Origin: an uncultured Bacilli bacterium
GTDB lineage: Bacteria; Bacillota_I; Bacilli_A; RF39; UBA660
Reading direction: 5' to 3'
DNA length: 64,000 nucleotides
NCBI GenBank assembly: GCA_934098455.1
Contig: CAKOOU010000001.1
Location: forward strand, 135,933-199,932
How positions within the stretch are numbered: the first letter of the stretch is position 1; each line of letters opens with the position of its first letter. Under the pieces are notes generated by a model. The model saw only the letters and a list, made by a program, of their open reading frames with translations, searched no databases and was not told where the DNA came from. The position numbers were made by a program, and so were the translations under genes. Shown here in pieces: positions 6,118 through 55,089 of the stretch.

Positions 6118-6240
6118 ATGAAAAGAACTTTTCAACCAAATAATCGTAAAAAAAGTAAAAAACATGGCTTTTTTGCACGTAAAGAAACGAATATTTTAAA
6201 ATCAAGAAGAAAAAAGGGACGCAAAGTATTATGTAAATAA
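6118..6240 (+). CDS. rpmH: 50S ribosomal protein L34
   Basis: This 40-codon [43 protein letters not shown], follows GAGGTGGAGG. Upstream is TTGACT-N17-TAAAAT (6058-6086). It is below the size cutoff of the ORF track. Confidence 0.9.
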
Positions 6241-6284
6241 ACCGCAATTTTATTGTGGTTTTTTATCTATAAGGATGTGATTAA

Positions 6285-6611
6285 ATGAAAAAAAGAGAAA
6301 TGATTAAATCAAAAAAAGATTTTACAACTCTTATAAAAACTGGAAAATATATTAAAACAAAAGACTATGTTATATATTATAAGGAAAACAATTTAGAAAA
6401 AATAAGATTTGGACTTGCTATAAGTAATAAGATTGGAAATGCAGTCACAAGAAATAAATTAAAAAGACAAACAAGAGAAATTATAGATAAATTAAAATCT
6501 TTATTTAAAAATAACACAGATTATATTATAATGATAAGGAAAGGGTGTTTAGAAACTCCATTTGAGGAAAGACTTAACAACCTAGAAAGAAAGATAAAGG
6601 AGAATATATGA
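6285..6611 (+). CDS. rnpA: RNase P protein component
   Basis: It has GLAISNKIGNAVTRNKLKRQTRE (the RNR-type motif). It sits between rpmH and yidC. Confidence 0.9.
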   Translation: MKKREMIKSKKDFTTLIKTGKYIKTKDYVIYYKENNLEKIRFGLAISNKIGNAVTRNKLKRQTREIIDKLKSLFKNNTDYIIMIRKGCLETPFEERLNNLERKIKENI

Positions 6612-7546
6612 AAAAAAACACAGGAAAAAAATTAATACTTATAATAATGTTAGCATTAACACTAACAACAGGATGTACAAAGTACTTATCAGATAATGAT
6701 AAAAAAAGAATAACAAATGAAAAGACAGGTCAAAGCTTAACTTCAAATATACTTTGTAAGCCAGAGGAAAAAGAATTAACAGCAATTTATGAAAAGTATG
6801 AAAAAAATATGGAAGTTAAATTAAAAGATTTACCAAGTTGTGAGAAATTAAAAATTTATAATAAAAAAACTTACAATGGTTTATGGGTACAATTATTTGT
6901 AATGCCAATTGCGTGGTTAATCATAAAATTAGGACTTTTAGTAAAAAATTATGGTATTTCAGTAATGTTAATTGGTTTAGCACTAAGAATAATTTTATTA
7001 CCATTATCACTTAAAACTGCTAAACAATCTGAAAATATGAAAAAAGCTCAACCTGAACTTGAAAAACTTGAAAAGAAATATAAAGATAAAACTGATTCAG
7101 ATTCAATGATGCAGAAAAGTCAAGAAACTATGTTAATTTATAAGAAATATGATATTAATCCAGTAAGTGGATGCCTAGTATCGTTTATACAATTACCATT
7201 ATTCTTTGCATTCTTAGAAGCAATAAACAGAGTACCAGCAATATTTGAAGAAAACTTATGGAGTTTACAATTAGGAACAACACCATTAGTTGGAATTAAA
7301 TCAGGTAATTATTTATATTTAGTACTAATAGGATTAATAATTCTAACAACATTCTTGTCATTTAAATTTAGTATGGCAACAACAGGAAGTTCTGAACAAC
7401 AAAAACAAATGCAATTTATGACAACATTTATGTTAATATTTATCTCAATAGCATCATTTAGTTTACCAACAGCAATAGCACTTTATTGGGTAGTCACAAA
7501 TGGATTTAGTGTAATACAATCATTAATTGTAAAAAAAAGGAGATAA
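6608..7546 (+). CDS. yidC: Membrane protein insertase YidC/SpoIIIJ family (lipoprotein)
   Basis: It has the lipobox LTLTTGC, several TM segments, and the conserved position after rnpA. It overlaps rnpA by 4 nt. Confidence 0.9.
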   Translation: MKKNTGKKLILIIMLALTLTTGCTKYLSDNDKKRITNEKTGQSLTSNILCKPEEKELTAIYEKYEKNMEVKLKDLPSCEKLKIYNKKTYNGLWVQLFVMPIAWLIIKLGLLVKNYGISVMLIGLALRIILLPLSLKTAKQSENMKKAQPELEKLEKKYKDKTDSDSMMQKSQETMLIYKKYDINPVSGCLVSFIQLPLFFAFLEAINRVPAIFEENLWSLQLGTTPLVGIKSGNYLYLVLIGLIILTTFLSFKFSMATTGSSEQQKQMQFMTTFMLIFISIASFSLPTAIALYWVVTNGFSVIQSLIVKKRR

Positions 7547-7552
7547 TGAATT

Positions 7553-8179
7553 ATGGAAGTAAAAGAGTTTGAAGGAAAAAATTTAGAAGAGTTAATTGAA
7601 AATAGTTTACAAGAACTTAACAAAGAAAAAACAGAAGTAATAATAACAAAAGAAGAAATAAAAGGTAGTTTATTAAAAAAATCAAGTTATAAAATTAAAG
7701 TTTACACACTTGACGCTATACAAAATTATGTAAAAGACTATTTAAAAAATTTTACTGATTTAATGGGTATTGATGTCACATTTGAATCTAAAATAAGAGA
7801 TGAACAAATAATAATAAAAATGTATAGTGATAATAATAGTATATTAATTGGTAAGGATGGAAGAACATTGTCATCATTAACATACATAGTAAAACAAATG
7901 TTAAGTAATAATTTTAAAATATATCCACATATAATTTTAGACGTAGAAAACTATAAAGAAAAACAAGAAAAGAATTTAGAAAGACTTGCAAAAAGAATTG
8001 CTCGTGAAGTTGCAACAACAAAAGTTGACGTAAAGTTAGAAAATATGAATTCTTATGAAAGAAGAATAGTTCATAATATATTAAGTAATAATAAAAAAGT
8101 GTCAACAATAAGTGAAGGTGAAGAACCAAATAGACATGTTGTAATTAAATATGTAGAAAGTAAAGAAACTGTCAATTAA
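7553..8179 (+). CDS. jag: Jag/KhpB RNA-binding protein (KH + R3H domains)
   Basis: It has a C-terminal R3H-like motif ENMNSYERRIVHNIL and lies downstream of yidC, the canonical position. Confidence 0.85.
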   Translation: MEVKEFEGKNLEELIENSLQELNKEKTEVIITKEEIKGSLLKKSSYKIKVYTLDAIQNYVKDYLKNFTDLMGIDVTFESKIRDEQIIIKMYSDNNSILIGKDGRTLSSLTYIVKQMLSNNFKIYPHIILDVENYKEKQEKNLERLAKRIAREVATTKVDVKLENMNSYERRIVHNILSNNKKVSTISEGEEPNRHVVIKYVESKETVN

Positions 8180-8204
8180 ATTTGATAGTTTTTATTTTAC
8201 GTAA

Positions 8205-8229
8205 AATTATTTCCCGGGAAATAATTTTT
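8205..8229 (+). terminator. Intrinsic terminator after jag
   Basis: A perfect hairpin AATTATTTCCCGGGAAATAATT is followed by a T-run. TGTGTTATAAT, an extended -10 for mnmE, follows it. Confidence 0.7.
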
Positions 8230-8259
8230 GTGTTATAATACATTATGGAGTGGTGTACT

Positions 8260-9615
8260 ATGTTTGATACAATATGTGCAATTTCAACAGCATTAGGTGT
8301 AGGAGCAATCTCTATTGTTAGAGTTTCAGGACCAAATGCGATTGAAATAGTTAATAAAATATTTAAAGGAAAAGATTTACGTAAAGTAGATTCCCATACA
8401 ATTAATTATGGATATATAATGGATAATAATGAAATAGTAGATGAAGTATTAGTATCTGTTATGTTAGCACCAAAAACTTATACAACAGAAGACATAATTG
8501 AAATAAATTGTCATGGTGGAATAAGTACTACTAATAAAGTTTTAGAACTATTATTAACAAATGGTGCAAGATTAGCAGAACCAGGAGAATTTACAAAAAG
8601 AGCATTTCTTAATGGAAGAATAGATTTAGTAGAAGCAGAATCAGTAGGAGATTTAATTAATTCAGAGACAGAAAAAAGTATGAAATTATCATTAAATGGT
8701 GTCACAGGAAATATAACTAATTTAGTAAATTCAATAAGGAAAGAATTAGTTAGTATCAGTGCAAATATAGAAGTTAATATAGATTATCCAGAATACGAAG
8801 ATGCAATTGTACTAACAAATGAATTAATCAAACCAAAAATTTTATCAATAAAAAATGAATTAGAAAATTTACTTAAAGAATCTCAAAATAGTAAACTTAT
8901 AAAAAATGGTATTGATGTTGCAATTGTAGGTAAACCAAACGTAGGAAAAAGTAGTTTACTAAATACATTATTAGAAGAAGAAAAAGCAATTGTCACAAAC
9001 ATTGCAGGAACAACACGTGATATAGTTGAAGGAAAAATAATATTAGATGGAATTATTTTAAATTTAATAGATACAGCTGGACTTCGTGAAACAAATGATA
9101 TAGTAGAAAAAATAGGTGTAAACAAAAGTAAAGAGATTATAAACTCATCTGATTTAATAATTTTAGTATTAAACTATAATGAAAAAATCACTAAAGAAGA
9201 ATTAGATTTAATAAATGAATTAAAAAATAAAAAACTAATTGTTTACATAAATAAAAATGACTTAGAAAAAAAACTAGATGAAAGTAAAATAAAAACAAAT
9301 AACATAGTATATGGAAATACAAAAGAATATAAAAATCTAAATGATTTAAAAAACAAAATAAGAGAATTATTTAATTTAGGTGAGTTAGAATCATCTAATT
9401 TAAATTATTTATCTAATTCAAGACAAATATCTTTAGTAAAAAAATCAATTGTTGTACTTGATAATACATTAAATAGTATAGAAAACAATATAGAAATAGA
9501 TTTACTTGCTATTGACATAAAAGAATGTTTTGACCTATTAGGTGAAATAATAGGAAGTACTTACAAAGATGAATTATTAGACGAAATATTCAGTAATTTC
9601 TGTTTAGGAAAGTGA
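8260..9615 (+). CDS. mnmE: tRNA modification GTPase MnmE
   Basis: It starts MFDTICAISTALGVGAISIVRVSG, has the G1 motif GKPNVGKSSLLN, and ends in CLGK. The start was moved to ATG 8260. Confidence 0.95.
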   Translation: MFDTICAISTALGVGAISIVRVSGPNAIEIVNKIFKGKDLRKVDSHTINYGYIMDNNEIVDEVLVSVMLAPKTYTTEDIIEINCHGGISTTNKVLELLLTNGARLAEPGEFTKRAFLNGRIDLVEAESVGDLINSETEKSMKLSLNGVTGNITNLVNSIRKELVSISANIEVNIDYPEYEDAIVLTNELIKPKILSIKNELENLLKESQNSKLIKNGIDVAIVGKPNVGKSSLLNTLLEEEKAIVTNIAGTTRDIVEGKIILDGIILNLIDTAGLRETNDIVEKIGVNKSKEIINSSDLIILVLNYNEKITKEELDLINELKNKKLIVYINKNDLEKKLDESKIKTNNIVYGNTKEYKNLNDLKNKIRELFNLGELESSNLNYLSNSRQISLVKKSIVVLDNTLNSIENNIEIDLLAIDIKECFDLLGEIIGSTYKDELLDEIFSNFCLGK

Positions 9616-9624
9616 GTGTAAAGT

Positions 9625-11496
9625 ATGAATTATGATGTAATTGTAGTAGGAGGAGGACATGCCGGTTGCGAAGCAAGTCATGCTGCAGCAAAAATGGGTG
9701 CAAAAACTGCTCTTATTACTTCAAATATAAAAAATATTGGAGATATGCCATGTAATCCATCAATCGGTGGTACCGCAAAAGGAATAATTGTTAGAGATAT
9801 TGACGCATTAGGCGGATTAATGGGAATAGTTGCAGATAAAAGTCACATACAAATAAAAATGTTAAATAATGGTAAAGGACCTGCAGTTAGATCTTTAAGA
9901 GCACAAGCAGATAAAATAACATATCCAAAAAATATGTTAAAAGCCTTACAAAATACAGAAAATTTAACAATTATAGAAGGTATGGTAGAAGATTTAATAA
10001 CTGATAATAACACGATAAAAGGAATAATATTGGAAGACGGAACTAAATATTTTTGTAAATCTTTAGTATTAACAACAGGAACATATCTAAGAAGTAAAAT
10101 ATTAGTAGGTGATACAAACAAATTAGAAGGTCCTCATGGAGAAAGAAGGTCAAAATTTTTAAGTACTAAATTAAAAGAATTAGGATTTGATATATTAAGA
10201 CTTAAAACTGGTACTCCACAAAGAATAGATAAAAACAGTGTAGATTTCAGTGTTTTAAAAGAAGAAACTGGCGATGATGAATATTGGACATTTAATACAG
10301 AAAATGAAATATATTATGACAAAGATAAACAAGAAAAATGTTATTTAGTTTACACTAATGAAAATACACATAATATAATAAAAGAAAATCTATCAAGAAG
10401 TGCAATGTATGGTGGATACGCAGAAGGAATAGGACCTAGATATTGTCCTAGCATTGAAGATAAAATAGTAAGATTTGCAGACAAAGAAAGACACCAATTA
10501 TTCCTAGAACCGGAAAGCCTATATTATGACGATTTATATTTACAAGGTTTCTCAACATCTATGCCAACAGACGTTCAAGAAAAAATGGTACATAGCTTAA
10601 AAGGATTAGAAAATGCAAAAATACTAAAATATGCTTATGCAATAGAATATGATGCAATAAATCCACTACAACTAAAACCATCACTTGAAACAAAAGTAAT
10701 AAATAATTTATTTACAGCAGGTCAAATAAACGGAACAAGTGGATATGAAGAAGCAGCAGGACAAGGAATCATAGCAGGAATTAATGCAGTGAAAAAAATT
10801 CAAAATAAAGAGCCATTAATTTTAAAAAGAAATGAATCATATATAGGAGTATTAATTGACGATTTAGTGACAAAAGGTACAAAAGAACCATATAGAATGT
10901 TAACAAGTCGTGCAGAATTCAGATTACTTTTAAGACATGATAATGCTGATATAAGATTACGCAAATATGGCTATGAAGCAGGACTTATTAGTGAAGAAAA
11001 ATACAACAAACTTATAGAAAAAGAAAATAATATTGACAAATTAATAAATGAACTAAAAGAAACTAAAATATCTAATAAAAACATAACACAAAATATATTA
11101 AAACAAATGGGAACAGATAAATTAGAAAATGGTACAAATCTTTATACATTCCTAAAACGTCCAGAAATCACAATAGATTTATTACTTAAAGAAAATATAG
11201 TAGAAAATAAATATGATAAAGAAGTATATAATCAAGCACAAATATTAATAAAATATGAAGGATATATCAACAAAGAACTAAAAGAAGTAGAAAAGCTTCT
11301 AAAGTTAGAATCAAAACAAATACCGAAAGATATTGACTATAACAAAATAACTAATTTAGCTAGCGAAGCAAAACAAAAATTAATTAATGTTGCTCCAGAA
11401 ACATTAGCACAAGCATCACGTATTAGTGGTGTAAACCCAGCTGATTTATCTATACTAGCGATATATTTAAAAAAGGAATATAGTAAAAATGAATGA
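9625..11496 (+). CDS. mnmG: tRNA uridine 5-carboxymethylaminomethyl modification enzyme MnmG (GidA)
   Basis: It has the FAD motif VIVVGGGHAGCEA, is 623 aa, and follows mnmE. Confidence 0.97.
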   Translation: MNYDVIVVGGGHAGCEASHAAAKMGAKTALITSNIKNIGDMPCNPSIGGTAKGIIVRDIDALGGLMGIVADKSHIQIKMLNNGKGPAVRSLRAQADKITYPKNMLKALQNTENLTIIEGMVEDLITDNNTIKGIILEDGTKYFCKSLVLTTGTYLRSKILVGDTNKLEGPHGERRSKFLSTKLKELGFDILRLKTGTPQRIDKNSVDFSVLKEETGDDEYWTFNTENEIYYDKDKQEKCYLVYTNENTHNIIKENLSRSAMYGGYAEGIGPRYCPSIEDKIVRFADKERHQLFLEPESLYYDDLYLQGFSTSMPTDVQEKMVHSLKGLENAKILKYAYAIEYDAINPLQLKPSLETKVINNLFTAGQINGTSGYEEAAGQGIIAGINAVKKIQNKEPLILKRNESYIGVLIDDLVTKGTKEPYRMLTSRAEFRLLLRHDNADIRLRKYGYEAGLISEEKYNKLIEKENNIDKLINELKETKISNKNITQNILKQMGTDKLENGTNLYTFLKRPEITIDLLLKENIVENKYDKEVYNQAQILIKYEGYINKELKEVEKLLKLESKQIPKDIDYNKITNLASEAKQKLINVAPETLAQASRISGVNPADLSILAIYLKKEYSKNE

Positions 11497-12193
11497 GACA
11501 GAATTTATAAATGAATTAAAAAATATTGACATAATATTAACACAAAATCAAATTAACAAATTCAAAATATATTATGAATACTTAATAGAATATAACAAAC
11601 ACACAAACTTAACATCAATAACAACTAAAGAAGATGTATATTTAAAACATTTCTACGATTCATGTCTCTTAACAAAAACAATAGATTTTAATAATATTGA
11701 TACTATGTTAGATATAGGATGCGGAGCTGGTTTTCCAGGTATAGTTATAAAAATACTATTTCCAAACATAAAATTAACTTTATTAGATTCAAATAACAAA
11801 AAAACTAAATTTTGTGAAAGTCTATCAACGCTATTAGAATTAGATAATGTAGAAATAGTAAATAAAAGAGCAGAAGAATATATAATAGAAAAAAGAGAAT
11901 ACTTTGATATTGTATCTGCAAGAGCAGTAAAAAATCTTCCAGTACTTATAGAATTATCCATACCTTATGTTAAACAAAATGGATATTTTATAGCAATGAA
12001 ATCTGACTACGAAGAAGAATTAAATAATAGTAAAAATGGAATTAAAGTACTAGGAGCAGAATATATTAAAACAATTAATATAAACTTACCAAACAATACT
12101 GGTATAAGAAACTTTATATTAATAAAAAAAATAAATAAAACAAATCCAAAATATCCAAGAAATTATAGTCAAATTATAAAAAAGCCTCTATAA
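11489..12193 (+). CDS. rsmG: 16S rRNA (guanine527-N7)-methyltransferase RsmG
   Basis: It has the SAM motif LDIGCGAGFPG and follows mnmG with an 8-nt overlap. Confidence 0.9.
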   Translation: MNETEFINELKNIDIILTQNQINKFKIYYEYLIEYNKHTNLTSITTKEDVYLKHFYDSCLLTKTIDFNNIDTMLDIGCGAGFPGIVIKILFPNIKLTLLDSNNKKTKFCESLSTLLELDNVEIVNKRAEEYIIEKREYFDIVSARAVKNLPVLIELSIPYVKQNGYFIAMKSDYEEELNNSKNGIKVLGAEYIKTININLPNNTGIRNFILIKKINKTNPKYPRNYSQIIKKPL

Positions 12194-12288
12194 ATTTAGA
12201 GACTATTTTTTAATTAAATTAACTATAAACTACTTGAAAAATATATAAAAATAAAGTATTATTATTAATAGAATAGGAGTAGGGGCAA

Positions 12289-13305
12289 ATGAATTTAGAA
12301 CCAAACATACAATATATAAATGTAGAAAATATAATTCCAAATAGATTTCAACCAAGACTAACTTTTGATGAAAATGCTTTAAAAGATTTAGCATCATCTA
12401 TAAAAGAACACGGTATTATACAACCATTAGTCTTAAGGAAATTATCTAATGATAAATATGAAATAATTGCAGGAGAAAGAAGATATAAAGCAAGTCAAAT
12501 AGCGGGATTAAATAAAGTACCAGCAATAATAGCAGATTTAGATGATAACACTTCAGCAGAAGTAGCGCTAGTAGAAAATTTACAAAGAAGAAATCTTTCT
12601 GCAATAGAAGAAGCAAAATCCTATAAAAAACTATTAGATAGAGGATATTTAACTCAAGATCAATTAGCAAAAAGATTAGGTATTTCACAATCTTCAGTAG
12701 CAAACAAGGTAAGATTATTAAATTTACCTGATGAAGTACAAGATGCATTAATGTCTGAAAAAATATCAGAAAGACATGCAAGAAGTTTATTGTCACTATC
12801 TAATCCACAAGACCAAATAGATATGTTAAATAAAATTATAGAAAACAGATTAACAGTAAGACAATTAGATAATGAAATAAAAAAATTACATGAACCAGCA
12901 CCAGAAGAAACATCATCTAGATTTAATATTTTAAATAATGAAGAAAACAAAGATTTATTAAATCAAATAGAAACTTTAGATATGTCATTTAGTGATAATG
13001 AAGATAACACAGATTTAGAAAGTGAAGACATTGCAAAACTAATAATGGATTCTAAAAAACAATTGCAAAATCAATATGAAATATTTGATATACCAACAGC
13101 AGAAGAATCTAAACCAGTAGAAACTAAAGTCGAAGAACCAAAAGAAACAAAACCTCAAAAAAGAATTATAAAAGGCGATTTAAATTCTGTAATAAATTCT
13201 TTAAAAGATATAGAACAAGAAATTAGTGATGCCGGTTTCCAAATAGAAACTGAAGATTACGATTTTGAAGATTTATATCAAATAATTATAAAAATAGAAA
13301 AATAA
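12289..13305 (+). CDS. parB: ParB/Spo0J/Noc-family DNA-binding protein with long acidic C-terminal extension
   Basis: It has the ParB box IIAGERRYKAS and the HTH LTQDQLAKRLGISQSSVANKVRLL. No adjacent parA/soj gene is present. Confidence 0.85.
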   Translation: MNLEPNIQYINVENIIPNRFQPRLTFDENALKDLASSIKEHGIIQPLVLRKLSNDKYEIIAGERRYKASQIAGLNKVPAIIADLDDNTSAEVALVENLQRRNLSAIEEAKSYKKLLDRGYLTQDQLAKRLGISQSSVANKVRLLNLPDEVQDALMSEKISERHARSLLSLSNPQDQIDMLNKIIENRLTVRQLDNEIKKLHEPAPEETSSRFNILNNEENKDLLNQIETLDMSFSDNEDNTDLESEDIAKLIMDSKKQLQNQYEIFDIPTAEESKPVETKVEEPKETKPQKRIIKGDLNSVINSLKDIEQEISDAGFQIETEDYDFEDLYQIIIKIEK

Positions 13306-13340
13306 AGTGGAAAACTTAATACTTATCCACTTTATTTTTT
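13304..13340 (+). terminator. parB terminator hairpin (copy A of a duplicated hairpin element)
   Basis: The stem AAAGTGGA (13304-13311) / TCCACTTT (13326-13333) is followed by a T-run. The 3' arm contains TTATCCAC (13323-13330). A near-identical element lies at 14585-14620. Confidence 0.75.
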
Positions 13341-13464
13341 TGACAAGTTTTGTCGAAAGACTTTATTTTTATTTCAAAACACTTTAATATAACTAACCGA
13401 GCGTCCAGGTTGGTGTTTACCTTACTAACTGATTCTAGCAAAGAATAAGAAGTGAGGTGGTAAT

Positions 13465-13539
13465 ATGTTTAAAAATTTAAAACAATTAATAAACAGAATT
13501 ATCATAATTTTGATATTAAATATTCTTAACAAAGATTAA
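13465..13539 (+). CDS. Type I toxin-like small hydrophobic peptide (24 aa), locus 1
   Basis: The ORF is MFKNLKQLINRIIIILILNILNKD after GAGGTGG. The 5' leader (13400-13413) is complementary to the 3' UTR (13604-13609, 13619-13626). A convergent antisense unit lies downstream. It is below the size cutoff of the ORF track. Confidence 0.5.
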   Translation: MFKNLKQLINRIIIILILNILNKD

Positions 13540-13544
13540 ATTAA

Positions 13545-13632
13545 ATCAAAACAAAAACATCCGCCACTCAGTTAGGACGGATGCTATCCCTCAGGGTAGA
13601 CATCCAACCTACAGGGGGTGGACGTTCTACTT
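13545..13632 (-). ncRNA. Candidate antitoxin sRNA antisense to the 3' UTR of locus 1
   Basis: On the minus strand, TTGACT (13668-13663) is separated by N18 from TATTAT (13644-13639). The terminator hairpin CATCCG...CGGATG (13583-13558) is followed by TTTTTGTTTT. The ends are predicted, not mapped. Confidence 0.45.
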
Positions 13633-13787
13633 AATAAAATAATAACATATAGAATATCGTAAAGTCAAACACTAAAATATCGTACTATAAGCACGGATAT
13701 TAGTTTACATTTATAATTGTAAATAAAATAATTTTACAACAAAAAATAATAGAATTTATGATATAATTATCATAGGAGAGTGAAAAA

Positions 13788-14576
13788 ATGGAAGAAACAA
13801 AAAATAATTCAAAAGGGTTAATAGTTTTGGTAATAATTCTAATTATTTGCGTATTAGGTTTAGGAGGATACATAGTCTATGATAAAATGTTAAATAAAAC
13901 AACACCAATTTCAAACAATACAAAAAGTTCCAAAACAAAGCCAATAAATAATGAAAGTGAATATGATAAAACTACATCTTACGATATTACATTAAATAAT
14001 AATAATCATAAAATTTATTATAAATATAAGATAGTAGCTGGAAATGACAATTATGAAGATAAAGAACTAGCAAAAGGAAACGGTGAGTATGTTTATAATG
14101 AATTACATGCTGAAATATATTTAGATAATAATAAAATAAAAGATACTGTTATTTATTATGATAAAGAAAACAATATTAATAATGTAAAATCAGAAAAAGA
14201 AAATTTAGATTTATCAAATACAAAAATAATAAAAGGAAAAGATAATAAAGAATACTTAATATTTACATTAGAAGAACCACATCAATTTCTTGACGGTAGA
14301 AAAGTTTTATTTATTTCAAATGACGATGGAAACTTAATATACAAATACGAACCTGAATTTAACAGTTCTTTAACAGTTGATGACCCAAATTCAAAATTTT
14401 ATAATTCAAGTGAAAGATATATTATAGAAACAGATAAAATATATATTATAGAAGACGCGGAAAACAATGAAAATGGCACTATAAAAATTCAAGAAAATAT
14501 ATTAACAATTGAAAACAATGAAGTAAAAATAGAAAAAGGTAATATATACGAAGGTTCTGGAGCAGGTGCCAGATAA
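13788..14576 (+). CDS. N-terminally membrane-anchored extracytoplasmic protein, paralogue 1 of 3
   Basis: The signal-anchor MEETKNNSKGLIVLVIILIICVLGLGGYIVYDK is shared with the ORFs at 27107 and 55207. It has RBS AGGAGAGTG and an extended -10 TGATATAAT upstream. Confidence 0.8.
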   Translation: MEETKNNSKGLIVLVIILIICVLGLGGYIVYDKMLNKTTPISNNTKSSKTKPINNESEYDKTTSYDITLNNNNHKIYYKYKIVAGNDNYEDKELAKGNGEYVYNELHAEIYLDNNKIKDTVIYYDKENNINNVKSEKENLDLSNTKIIKGKDNKEYLIFTLEEPHQFLDGRKVLFISNDDGNLIYKYEPEFNSSLTVDDPNSKFYNSSERYIIETDKIYIIEDAENNENGTIKIQENILTIENNEVKIEKGNIYEGSGAGAR

Positions 14577-26590: not shown

Positions 26591-26724
26591 TTTTTTTTTA
26601 TGAAAAGTTTTGGCAAGTTTTGTCGAAACACTTTATTTATATTTAAAACTATTGTAGTATATCTAATCGAATATTCAAGTTCTTAGTGTCTACCTACAGC
26701 TTATTAAGGAGGTAGGTTGATTAT

Positions 26725-26817
26725 ATGACAAACAAATCATTTATTTTAAAAATATTTGATAAATTCATAATAATAATCAAATTGGTTATTTTATCTAAAA
26801 TACTCTTCAGGGGGTAA
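26725..26817 (+). CDS. Type I toxin-like small hydrophobic peptide (30 aa), locus 2
   Basis: The ORF is MTNKSFILKIFDKFIIIIKLVILSKILFRG after AAGGAGG. The 5' arms GAATATTCAA (26669-26678) and GTGTCTACCT (26686-26695) pair with the 3' UTR segments TTGAATGTTC (26920-26929) and AGGTAGACAT (26902-26911). Confidence 0.5.
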   Translation: MTNKSFILKIFDKFIIIIKLVILSKILFRG

Positions 26818-26860
26818 TTGGTTAAATATTAATTAGACACTAGTATTTTAATTATGGTTC

Positions 26861-26932
26861 AAAAAAAGAACACGTAATTAATACGTGTGTCTAACCCAAA
26901 CAGGTAGACATTCAGCAATTTGAATGTTCCCT
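26861..26932 (-). ncRNA. Candidate antitoxin sRNA antisense to the 3' UTR of locus 2
   Basis: On the minus strand, TTGACA (26966-26961) is separated by N16 from TATAAT (26944-26939). The terminator stem ACACGTA/TACGTGT is followed by T7 (plus-strand A-run 26861-26867). The ends are predicted. Confidence 0.5.
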
Positions 26933-27106
26933 AATAAAATTATAACACAAGTAATATTTGTGTCAACATATATAAAATAATTATTTTAAAATACGTACTA
27001 TAAGCACGGAAAAATTTTGTAATTTACACAAAGCAATGTAAATATATTATTAACGATATACAATTACAAGTAAATATAATATAATTATCGTAGGAGAGTG
27101 AAAGAA

Positions 27107-27886
27107 ATGGAAGAAACTAAAAAAAGTTCAAAAGGTTTAATATTACTAATAATTGTTTTAATTGTATCTGTATTAGGTTTAGGAGGATATATAGTATATG
27201 ATAAAGTTTTAAATAAAAATAAACAAACAACAAGTACAAATAATAATAATACATCTTCAACAAATAAAAAAGAAGAAAATACAAATTTAGACAATAGCGA
27301 TAAAAATAGCATTTTAGAAACATATATACTAGAAAATATTGATTTAGAAAGTAGTTATGAAGTATTAAATAATGAAGAGTATAAAGCGTTAGTAAAAAAA
27401 TATGAAGACAACGCAAATAATATTATTGAGAATGAAAATGAAGTTGCAATAAATAATACTATTAGTACAGAAATAAATTGGAAAGAAGTTTCAAAATATG
27501 TAGACAATAATTCACTAATTAGCAGAATGACAGAAAATAGTAGATTAAAAAGTGTTAAATACGATGATTTATTGAAAACAAAAAAACAATTATATGGAGA
27601 AAACTCAATTTTAGAAAAGCAAAATTTTAGTTACGGAAATTGTAGTGAATACATATATATAGAAAAATTAAATATATATATTGAAAATAATGAGGGATGT
27701 GGATTGAATACTAGCGAAGAACCCATTATAAAAAAAATAATAAAACAAAATAATATACTATTCGTTTTTGTAAATACATATAATTATACAGATTTTGAGA
27801 GTCCAATTTATTCTCAAGATGTAGTTATGGAATTTAGAGAACAAAGTTCTGGATACTATTTATATAAATTAACAAAACTAAATTAA
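27107..27886 (+). CDS. N-terminally membrane-anchored extracytoplasmic protein, paralogue 2 of 3
   Basis: It starts MEETKKSSKGLILLIIVLIVSVLGLGGYIVYDK. The start was set at ATG 27107, homologous to paralogue 1, with the same AGGAGAGTGAAA RBS context. Confidence 0.8.
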   Translation: MEETKKSSKGLILLIIVLIVSVLGLGGYIVYDKVLNKNKQTTSTNNNNTSSTNKKEENTNLDNSDKNSILETYILENIDLESSYEVLNNEEYKALVKKYEDNANNIIENENEVAINNTISTEINWKEVSKYVDNNSLISRMTENSRLKSVKYDDLLKTKKQLYGENSILEKQNFSYGNCSEYIYIEKLNIYIENNEGCGLNTSEEPIIKKIIKQNNILFVFVNTYNYTDFESPIYSQDVVMEFREQSSGYYLYKLTKLN

Positions 27887-54577: not shown

Positions 54578-54888
54578 TAAAAACCCTCCTACTTATATTA
54601 TTGTGAAAAAATTTGCATTTCCTTTTTTTTATTGTAAAACTTTACACTTTTATGTAAAATGTAGTAAGTATAATATGGTTTATATGTGAATGATAAAGTT
54701 AATTTTAAAGTTTTTTTAAAGATAATATTGTTTTTTTATATTTATATGTAATATATTACATTTGTTTTTTTATATATATTTTTATTGTATTTTTGTTGTG
54801 CTATATAATATTTTGTATTATAATACTTGTAGGGATATTTAATTGTTGAGTACTTGCCTACTTTCATTTAGAGAGGAGGCTTGATTTT

Positions 54889-54978
54889 ATGAAGAAAAAA
54901 GATTTATTAATCTCGCTTCTAATATTAATTATCATTTTATTAATAGTTTCTATAATGATTCTATGCATAAAAAAATAG
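54889..54978 (+). CDS. Type I toxin-like small hydrophobic peptide (29 aa), locus 3
   Basis: The ORF is MKKKDLLISLLILIIILLIVSIMILCIKK after GAGAGGAGG. A TTGTGC-N17-TATAAT promoter lies at 54796-54824. The 5' arm GTTGAGTA (54845-54852) and CCTAC (54857-54861) pair with TACTCAAC (55032-55039) and GTAGG (55027-55031). The 3' end is ...GTACTCCC followed by T7. Confidence 0.5.
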   Translation: MKKKDLLISLLILIIILLIVSIMILCIKK

Positions 54979-55089
54979 TACTCAATCTAAACTTAGTAGA
55001 TTAAAGTACTAAACACCATTATAAAGGTAGGTACTCAACTCACTAAAATTAAGTACTCCCTTTTTTTATTGTATTCAAATTTCTTTGAC
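54969..55089 (-). ncRNA. Candidate antitoxin sRNA antisense to the 3' UTR of locus 3
   Basis: On the minus strand, TTGCAT (55124-55119) is separated by N17 from TATCAT (55101-55096). The terminator hairpin AGTACT..AATCTA/TAGATT..AGTACT (55010-54977) is followed by T7 (plus-strand A7 54969-54975) and overlaps the last toxin codons. Confidence 0.45.

Follow-up and report, generated by a model that had tools for sequence, protein, structure and literature searches.

The locus examined here raises the question of whether a small peptide gene of an uncultured gut bacterium forms, together with a convergent antisense RNA, a chromosomal type I toxin-antitoxin system. It lies at positions 26610-26966 of a 64,000-nucleotide stretch of contig CAKOOU010000001.1 (hereafter the window) from a very AT-rich uncultured gut Bacilli lineage; the GC content of the window is 23.3 %, and human gut assemblies, Hadza included, hold proteins identical to proteins of the window. 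The locus is referred to as locus 2, and its paralogue at 13340-13700 as locus 1. An initial annotation had proposed a type I toxin-antitoxin-like locus, and this reading is supported in silico by covariation of a clamp that joins the two ends of the sense RNA, by a conserved antisense RNA and by a coding-type pattern of change in the open reading frame (ORF). With better than even confidence, we interpret locus 2 as a chromosomal type I toxin-antitoxin-like module of two convergent RNAs.

Relatives of the module were gathered from other gut metagenomes and metagenome-assembled genomes (MAGs), partly by pattern scans and partly through homologues of the downstream protein. The resulting set holds 12 distinct sequences in four genomic contexts; the assemblies include CAKOHQ01 (relative L011), CAKONF01 (L013), OIYG01 (L028) and GCA_963609515.1 (L056). 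Helix pairing was scored in a manual structural alignment, in which helix 1 and helix 2 alone have a secure anchor; at the terminator, at the antisense hairpin and at the sequence complementary to the Shine-Dalgarno region (anti-SD), the register between locus 1-type and locus 2-type sequences is arbitrary. MAFFT alignment across both locus types put the 3' strand of helix 1 one column out of register and broke up a paired deletion in L011; RNAalifold on mixed sets was therefore uninformative and the manual structural alignment was used. The elements of the sense strand are the following, MFE standing for the minimum free energy structure, SD for Shine-Dalgarno sequence and UTR for untranslated region.

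26610 to 26649, plus strand: block A, a conserved upstream block, TTGGCAAGTTTTGTCGAAACACTTTATTTATATTTAAAAC, near-identical at 13340-13379 of the paralogue and in L011, L013 and L028.
26655 to 26660, plus strand: candidate -10 box TAGTAT (TAATAT in locus 1), in a context, TA(G/A)TATA(T/A)C(T/C)AA(T/C)CGA, kept in 12 of 12 variants.
26669 to 26681, plus strand: 5' strand of helix 1, GAAUAUUCAAGUU, paired with 26917-26929 in the MFE, in the centroid and in the RNAalifold consensus of nine relatives.
26685 to 26695, plus strand: 5' strand of helix 2, AGUGUCUACCU, containing the anti-SD CUACCU and paired with 26902-26912 in the full-length fold.
26706 to 26714, plus strand: SD AAGGAGGTA, read from the sequence; G-rich strings are rare at 23 % GC.
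26725 to 26817, plus strand: ORF of a 30-residue peptide, MTNKSFILKIFDKFIIIIKLVILSKILFRG, the putative toxin, taken from the ORF listing; its frame is kept in relatives.
26833 to 26895, plus strand: long hairpin of the 3' UTR, UUAGACAC ... GUGUCUAA, enclosing an A7 loop, present in the fold and in the RNAalifold consensus.
26896 to 26901, plus strand: linker CCAAAC, within AACCCAAACA, unpaired in the fold and in the consensus and complementary to an unpaired linker of the antisense RNA.
26902 to 26912, plus strand: 3' strand of helix 2, AGGUAGACAUU, whose core GGTAGACAT is invariant in 12 of 12 variants.
26917 to 26929, plus strand: 3' strand of helix 1, AAUUUGAAUGUUC, supported by the MFE, the centroid, the RNAalifold consensus and the manual structural alignment.

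Reading out the sequence recovered, each in its place, all the elements quoted initially, namely the pairing arms, AAGGAGG (26706-26712), AGGTAG (26710-26715), the ORF and the minus-strand promoter. The sense RNA probably starts near G26669, the first paired base of helix 1, as set by the candidate -10 box, and its predicted length is about 265 nt or longer. When folded from 26667 to 26935 (269 nt), it reaches a minimum free energy of -76.4 kcal/mol, against -40.7 ± 3.9 kcal/mol for dinucleotide shuffles (z = -9.2); the z-score of the locus 1 sense RNA is -7.1. In both the MFE and the centroid of RNAfold, 13 + 2 + 11 pairs join 26669-26695 to 26902-26929 and thus close the RNA by a clamp of 26 bp. 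The originally quoted arms form part of it: GAATATTCAA (26669-26678) pairs with TTGAATGTTC (26920-26929) and GTGTCTACCT (26686-26695) with AGGTAGACAT (26902-26911), each over 10 bp including one G·U. The 3' arm can also form a local hairpin, ACATTCA/TGAATGT (26908-26927), which corresponds to the 5' hairpin of the antisense RNA.

The clamp is kept across the relatives. Helix 1 occurs with seven distinct arm sequences (five arm types), all of which preserve it, as listed here with the 5' strand first.

Locus 2 of the window: GAAUAUUCAAGUU with AAUUUGAAUGUUC.
Most strain variants: GAACAUUCAAGUU, in which a U·G pair becomes C-G, with the 3' strand of locus 2.
L011: GAACAUUCAU-UU with AA-AUGAAUGUUC.
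Locus 1: GAGCGUCCA with UGGACGUUC.
L013: GAACGUCCA, in which a G·U pair becomes A-U, with the 3' strand of locus 1.
L028: GAGCAUUCG with UGAAUGCUC.

Four columns of helix 1 have changed on both sides and are still paired, two have changed through a wobble pair and none is broken. L011 has U-A in place of an A-U pair and has lost the adjoining G·U pair from both strands. In three of the four types, the 5' arm prefers its cognate 3' arm over the others by 4-12 kcal/mol, and RNAalifold applied to nine locus 2-type sequences recovers the same clamp. The covariation announced for the two-helix closure thus persisted as homologues were added, but it belongs to helix 1: helix 2, near-identical in sequence in all types, is conserved without covarying. 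It contains three or four G·U pairs in locus 1 and L028, so that 11 of 11 positions pair on the plus strand against 7-8 of 11 on the minus strand. Such G·U pairs, which fit one strand only, argue for pairing in the RNA and against an inverted repeat at the level of the DNA. Compensation is also seen in the 3'-UTR hairpin, where L011 has a U-A to C-G replacement (GGUUC/GAAC to GUCC/GGAC) and L046 an A-U to G·U change. The initial annotation had described the primary sequence of locus 2 as completely different from that of locus 1, which is wrong: the two loci are alignable paralogues that have in common the upstream GTTTTGTCGAAAnACTTTATTTnTATTTnAAAA, the core GGTAGACAT, the antisense -10 region and a 17-mer, CGTACTATAAGCACGGA.

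The minus strand carries the elements of a short RNA directed against the 3' end of the sense RNA.

26939 to 26966, minus strand: antisense promoter TTGACA-N16-TGT-TATAAT, with 12 of 12 consensus positions and a TGn extension, the best match of the promoter scan.
26861 to 26888, minus strand: intrinsic terminator ACACGTATTAATTACGTGT + TCTTTTTTT, with the stem at 26888-26870 followed by TCTTTTTTT.
26861 to 26933, minus strand: predicted antisense RNA of about 72 nt, consisting of the 5' hairpin ACAUUCA/UGAAUGU, a single-stranded linker, the terminator hairpin and U7.

Perfect TTGACA-N16-18-TATAAT promoters are found at three sites on both strands of the window, against 0.38 expected, and the minus-strand terminator is one of three terminator-like matches of a scan in which shuffled sequences give 0.0. 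These results agree with the initial prediction that a minus-strand promoter and terminator would define an RNA of about 70 nt. As folded (73 nt), the antisense RNA adopts a two-hairpin structure with z = -3.8. It is fully complementary to the 3' UTR of the sense RNA only, downstream of the stop at 26817, and not to the ORF. Locus 1, L011 and L028 have an equivalent promoter at the same place, in which TTGAC(A/T) and the -10 box are separated by 16-18 nt that end in TGn and otherwise differ in sequence, and the order of 5' hairpin, unpaired linker, terminator hairpin and U-run is predicted in the three other types too. Both antisense hairpins of locus 1 and L028 carry G·U pairs that become A·C on the sense strand. 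The same DNA thus appears, from the pairing on either strand, to be selected for local hairpins in the minus-strand RNA and for the long-range clamp in the plus-strand RNA. Together, the promoter, the terminator and the strand-specific G·U pairs predict the antisense RNA of extended complementarity that is expected of type I systems in general. In the L043 lineage, the antisense -35 box has changed from TTGACA to TTGACG.

A small ORF (fewer than 60 codons) with its own ribosome-binding site is the other general attribute of type I systems, and locus 2 has one. The distance from the end of AGGAGG to the ATG is long (12 nt), or 10 nt if the SD is read as AAGGAGGTA; a strong SD at suitable distance is retained in all types. 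The peptide is small and cationic, with a short hydrophobic core of only about 10-14 residues that is unexceptional for the genome. Evidence for coding comes from the two most diverged relatives, locus 1 (MFKNLKQLINRIIIILILNILNKD) and L028 (MFKNLEKLLNRIIIILMIIFLDKE), whose ORFs both have 24 codons and differ by no indel. Their 20 differences are distributed 7/1/12 over the three codon positions, with a ratio of non-synonymous to synonymous change (pN/pS) of 0.22; under equal rates, at most one of 20 changes at second positions has a binomial probability of about 0.003. Among locus 2-type sequences, indels spare the ORF: 2 nt just before the ATG in L056-L059 and 6 nt just after the stop in L053. 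The locus 2 ORF is read, from these patterns, as a translated peptide with loose sequence requirements, such as are normal for type I toxins (PMC8309996).

Two features proposed for the peptide gene did not hold. An amphipathic helix was set aside, the hydrophobic moment of the whole locus 2 peptide standing only at the 14th percentile. A leader mini-ORF, TTG ATT ATA TGA (26717-26728), starts 4 nt after AGGAGG and its stop overlaps the ATG of the peptide as ATGA; coupling of the hok/mok kind through this frame was rejected because the 2-nt deletion in L056-L059 destroys it by putting the TTG in frame with the ATG.

Translation of the sense RNA may be restrained by its own leader. In the nascent 62-nt leader, ACCUAC is predicted to pair with GUAGGU and to cover the SD, and in the locus 1 and L028 types ACCUUACU or ACCUCACU pairs with the SD region of the same RNA. 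As every type pairs its SD with an upstream anti-SD, occlusion of the SD is a conserved feature of the module. It is only partial in the full-length MFE of the window copy, where AAGGA stands in a 5-nt loop and the remainder is paired.

Several observations weigh against a toxin-antitoxin module and have to be set beside this evidence. The 5' end of the sense RNA is ill defined, since the -35 sequence for the candidate -10 box is poor, and at its other end the scan gave no intrinsic terminator on the sense strand ahead of the next gene, so that read-through into that gene is possible. The translation switch proposed initially, in which the anti-SD would alternate between the clamp and the SD, stood for locus 2 to a modest extent: masking the stretch covered by the antisense RNA returns the 5' arm to the SD and lowers the mean unpaired probability of the SD from 0.47 to 0.30. 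The same masking changes nothing in L028 or in locus 1, whose SD stays paired with or without it, and in these folding models the switch is possibly a small effect of the locus 2 type and not general to the family. Constraint on the peptide is weak within the locus 2 clade, with about two synonymous against six non-synonymous changes in the ORF. Codon 5 has become a stop (TCA to TGA) in L043-L045 (1618-1632; three samples), a 1-nt deletion in L041 (about 271-275) alters the last codon and extends the frameshifted ORF by six codons, and the SD is weakened to AAGGAAGTA (AGGAGG to AGGAAG) in L039-L041 (about 695-700), which counts against strong constraint. The hydrophobicity of the peptides is ordinary, at GRAVY (grand average of hydropathy) percentiles 46-65 among random ORFs of the 23 % GC window, and it was dropped as evidence for a toxin after this comparison. 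Finally, the phylogeny is shallow: the five arm types all come from closely related uncultured Bacilli.

Some of these points would suit a module of the same architecture in which the peptide does no harm but acts as a small membrane or regulatory protein, its synthesis being tuned by a cis-antisense RNA. The short hydrophobic core and unremarkable hydrophobicity agree with such a protein, as do the null alleles of wild strains, in which the rest of the module is intact whether the ORF is interrupted, frameshifted or preceded by a weak SD. No known toxin family is matched either: searches of Pfam, NCBIfam and PHROGs with the peptides found no family (none at E <= 10 in Pfam and NCBIfam), and phmmer with the 30-residue peptide found 0 matches among 1.84 billion representative proteins. 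Against this explanation, the module occurs in several copies whose contexts are unrelated, and it joins a strong, constitutive antisense promoter to a sequestered SD and an mRNA clamped at its 5' and 3' ends; together these are the hallmarks of type I toxin loci (PMC5416894, PMC6562991). Point-inactivated copies are typical of chromosomal type I toxins as well, being known for hok and aapA (PMC5416894), and the natural nonsense and frameshift alleles are thus compatible with toxicity without being proof of it. We regard a harmless protein as unlikely.

The second alternative, to which we give still less credit, is that the ORF is untranslated and the sense RNA is either a structured non-coding RNA opposed by an antisense RNA or a long leader that regulates the gene downstream. 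The missing sense-strand terminator would agree with a leader, and so would the paralogous genes that follow loci 1 and 2, which share block D, the gene promoter and the N-terminus. The nonsense allele retains all RNA features, and protein-level constraint is weak within the locus 2 clade. The contexts of the module speak otherwise.

Context 1, after rsmG-parB: locus 1 and L013, the latter with a different downstream gene.
Context 2, between a 178-aa gene and a hypervariable membrane-protein gene by the gene of pyruvate:ferredoxin oxidoreductase (PFOR): the locus 2 type.
Context 3, upstream of a glmS ribozyme: L011.
Context 4, against a convergent 366-aa gene: L028.

Because these four contexts are unrelated, the module is an independent unit and not the leader of one gene; L011, L013 and L028 carry it without the downstream gene of loci 1 and 2. 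The coding pattern of the locus 1 and L028 ORFs, equal in length, and the SD kept in all types argue against an untranslated ORF, and Rfam offered no family: at the gathering score the whole window had no match, and for the two loci a threshold of E <= 10 brought up matches at chance level only. That the arms are merely DNA-level inverted repeats of a small mobile element resembling a miniature inverted-repeat transposable element, with incidental RNA features, is hardly credible, for although two inverted-repeat arms lie about 230 bp apart and the unit occurs in several genomic contexts, conservation runs past both arms into block A and the antisense promoter, pairs are kept through one-strand G·U intermediates, as is characteristic of RNA pairing, the unit encloses a conserved ORF, SD, promoter and terminator, and nothing similar was found in phage and plasmid collections or viral contigs.

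For the toxin-antitoxin reading, a mechanism can be proposed by comparison with bsrG/SR4 and txpA/RatA of Bacillus subtilis (PMC3834814, PMC6562991) and with the 5'-3' locks of hok and aapA1 (PMC5416894); its RNA half-lives, RNase III cleavage, toehold order and peptide toxicity are inferred from these systems. During transcription, the anti-SD CUACCU of the leader would pair with the SD region and leave the nascent message untranslated. Once the 3' UTR has been made, the first 27 nt would pair with 26902-26929, and the 26-bp clamp would bury both ends in a compact, presumably long-lived and poorly translated mRNA. The antisense RNA would make its first contact at the sole unpaired stretch of its target, AACCCAAACA, the proposed toehold in the modelled fold. 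From there, pairing would spread through the 3' strand of the clamp and the 3' hairpin, yielding a long duplex that would be a substrate of RNase III and freeing the 5' arm to fall back on the SD. Toxin would then be produced only upon depletion of the short antisense RNA.

A bolder version, which we hold to be doubtful, makes the antisense RNA a remote switch: having docked on the linker, it would displace the 5' arm by strand invasion, and the freed anti-SD would shut the ribosome-binding site 190 nt upstream, the clamp serving both as stability lock and as sensor of the antitoxin, while a dedicated regulator bound to the block A repeats might make the toxin conditional. Block A holds TTGnCn direct repeats in a 10-nt phase (TTGRCA AGTT TTGTCG AAAn), and its counterpart in L028 (905-960) has three GTTTTGnnnA units. 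It is better conserved between the paralogues than the RNA, whose transcribed part has diverged. From its sequence, block A may serve the sense RNA as promoter or operator, possibly as the binding site, in place of a -35 box, of a regulator that recognizes direct repeats. An alternative sense promoter is TTGGCA-N18-TATTTA from 26610, whose equivalent in locus 1, TTGACA-N18-TATTTT, scored 10 of 12. Used as a pattern, block A retrieved from genome contigs the two related MAG loci (L011 and L013) and one chance match, and from metagenome contigs 25 matches of which 24 were due to chance and L028 alone was real. A block A-like string ahead of an unrelated small ORF in L023 was judged a chance occurrence.

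Among known systems, the closest in arrangement are bsrG/SR4, txpA/RatA, bsrE/SR5 and yonT/SR6 of B. subtilis, which share with locus 2 a Firmicute host and a partly sequestered toxin SD. The antisense RNA predicted at locus 2 lies wholly in the 3' UTR, which is the 3' overlap of the B. subtilis type. SR4 is about 180 nt long. The locus 2 antisense RNA is shorter (about 72 nt), and the overlap is about 70 nt as compared with 100-140 bp in the B. subtilis systems. Antitoxins that bind the 3' end in this species promote RNase III-dependent decay, and in bsrG such binding remodels the SD region remotely (PMC3834814, PMC6562991); duplex formation, clamp opening and degradation are presumed at locus 2 by analogy, the predicted SD remodelling being weak there, unlike in bsrG. 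The locus 2 antisense RNA targets the 3' strand of an end-closing clamp, for which no description was found in the parts of the B. subtilis reports consulted, and neither the peptides nor the RNAs of those systems resemble locus 2 in sequence (Pfam, NCBIfam, Rfam).

The clamp itself recalls hok/Sok of plasmid R1 and aapA1/IsoA1 of Helicobacter pylori, in which a long-distance 5'-3' lock keeps the mRNA stable and poorly translated, the peptide has about 30 residues, and chromosomal copies exist of which some are point-inactivated (PMC5416894, PMC6733600). Locus 2 has such a long-distance pairing, which covaries and is predicted by the MFE and centroid structures as well as by the alignment consensus. 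The hosts of those systems are Proteobacteria or Epsilonproteobacteria, there is no sequence similarity to locus 2, and activation by 3' processing has been shown for them. Their antisense RNA covers the 5' UTR or the translation start, whereas that of locus 2 covers the 3' UTR only.

Fst with RNA I and RNA II of the par locus of pAD1, and Fst/Ldr-like systems, resemble locus 2 in their Gram-positive host, a peptide of about 30 residues, a short antitoxin RNA, convergent transcription and an SD sequestered by 5' structure (PMC8309996). The locus 2 peptide differs in lacking APxxxGxxx and any Pro or Gly in its hydrophobic core, and it has no Pfam or NCBIfam match. RNA II of pAD1 par is about 65-70 nt long. 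The bidirectional terminator of the Fst type is not shared by the locus 2 RNAs, the U-run of the hairpin being on the minus strand only, and no 5' direct repeats common to both RNAs are seen.

The initial annotation had treated three loci as one set; a profile search of the window and the gathered sequences found exactly two copies of the module in the window, and the third locus is analogous and unrelated. The latter, at 54832-55066, has a strong SD and an ORF (54889-54978) for a very hydrophobic 29-residue peptide, MKKKDLLISLLILIIILLIVSIMILCIKK, and its 5'-3' closure of about 28 bp ends in a U-run (fold z = -7.0). A minus-strand TTGCAT-N17-TATCAT and a hairpin with U-run over its 3' end were seen by eye; they were not listed by the consensus scan. 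The homologous copy and the block that follows both modules are these.

13340 to 13668, plus strand: locus 1 module, with an ORF at 13465-13539 encoding MFKNLKQLINRIIIILILNILNKD (24 aa) and the antisense promoter TTGACT-N18-TATTAT at 13668-13639.
26994 to 27010, no strand assigned: block D, CGTACTATAAGCACGGA, with an exact second copy at 13681-13697.

Block D follows both modules and L013, whereas L011 and L028 lack it. Read on the minus strand, it resembles a terminator: a small hairpin, one G·U pair of which fits this strand only, is followed by a U/A-rich tail. Judging from this sequence, it may shield the antisense promoter from transcripts running on along the minus strand, or be a protein-binding site. 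In L028, the sense RNA has an intrinsic terminator of its own, CATTTG...CAAATG followed by T9, over the antisense promoter.

The genes that follow loci 1 and 2 (13788-14576 and 27107-27886) share their promoter and first 50 codons, and hence the same N-terminus. The gene after locus 2 is strain-hypervariable, with alleles of 184-378 aa at or near this position, most of them before the PFOR gene (L039-L059); beyond the promoter region and some 50 N-terminal residues (MEETK..., a membrane anchor), these alleles have nothing in common. From these alleles, it looks like a cassette-type replacement of the extracellular part. In L011, the glmS ribozyme (Rfam RF00234, 83.6 bits) lies at 7158-7305, directly 3' of the module and ahead of glmS. 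Locus 1 follows an origin-proximal gene set (6118-13305) with rpmH at 6118-6240, recognized from its translation, and rsmG (11489-12193) and parB (12289-13305), recognized with Pfam; the ORFs between rpmH and rsmG are presumably rnpA-yidC-jag-mnmE-mnmG, which they fit by order and size only.

Locus 2 combines the 3'-end antisense arrangement of the Bacillus type with the 5'-3' mRNA lock of the hok/aapA1 type (PMC5416894, PMC6733600). It belongs by sequence to no described toxin or antitoxin family and is a well-supported candidate, on these comparisons, for a new type I toxin-antitoxin family. The finding leaves the accepted picture of type I systems as it is. The natural variants offer a ready mutagenesis series, with compensatory pairs, a paired deletion, a weakened SD and nonsense and frameshift alleles, that addresses the cooperation of mRNA end-pairing, SD sequestration and 3'-end antisense binding. 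If the reading is true, the module would be a compact natural example in which the target of the antitoxin is one strand of the clamp of the toxin mRNA, and it would represent a new type I toxin family in an uncultured, extremely AT-rich gut Bacilli lineage for which no such system has been described.

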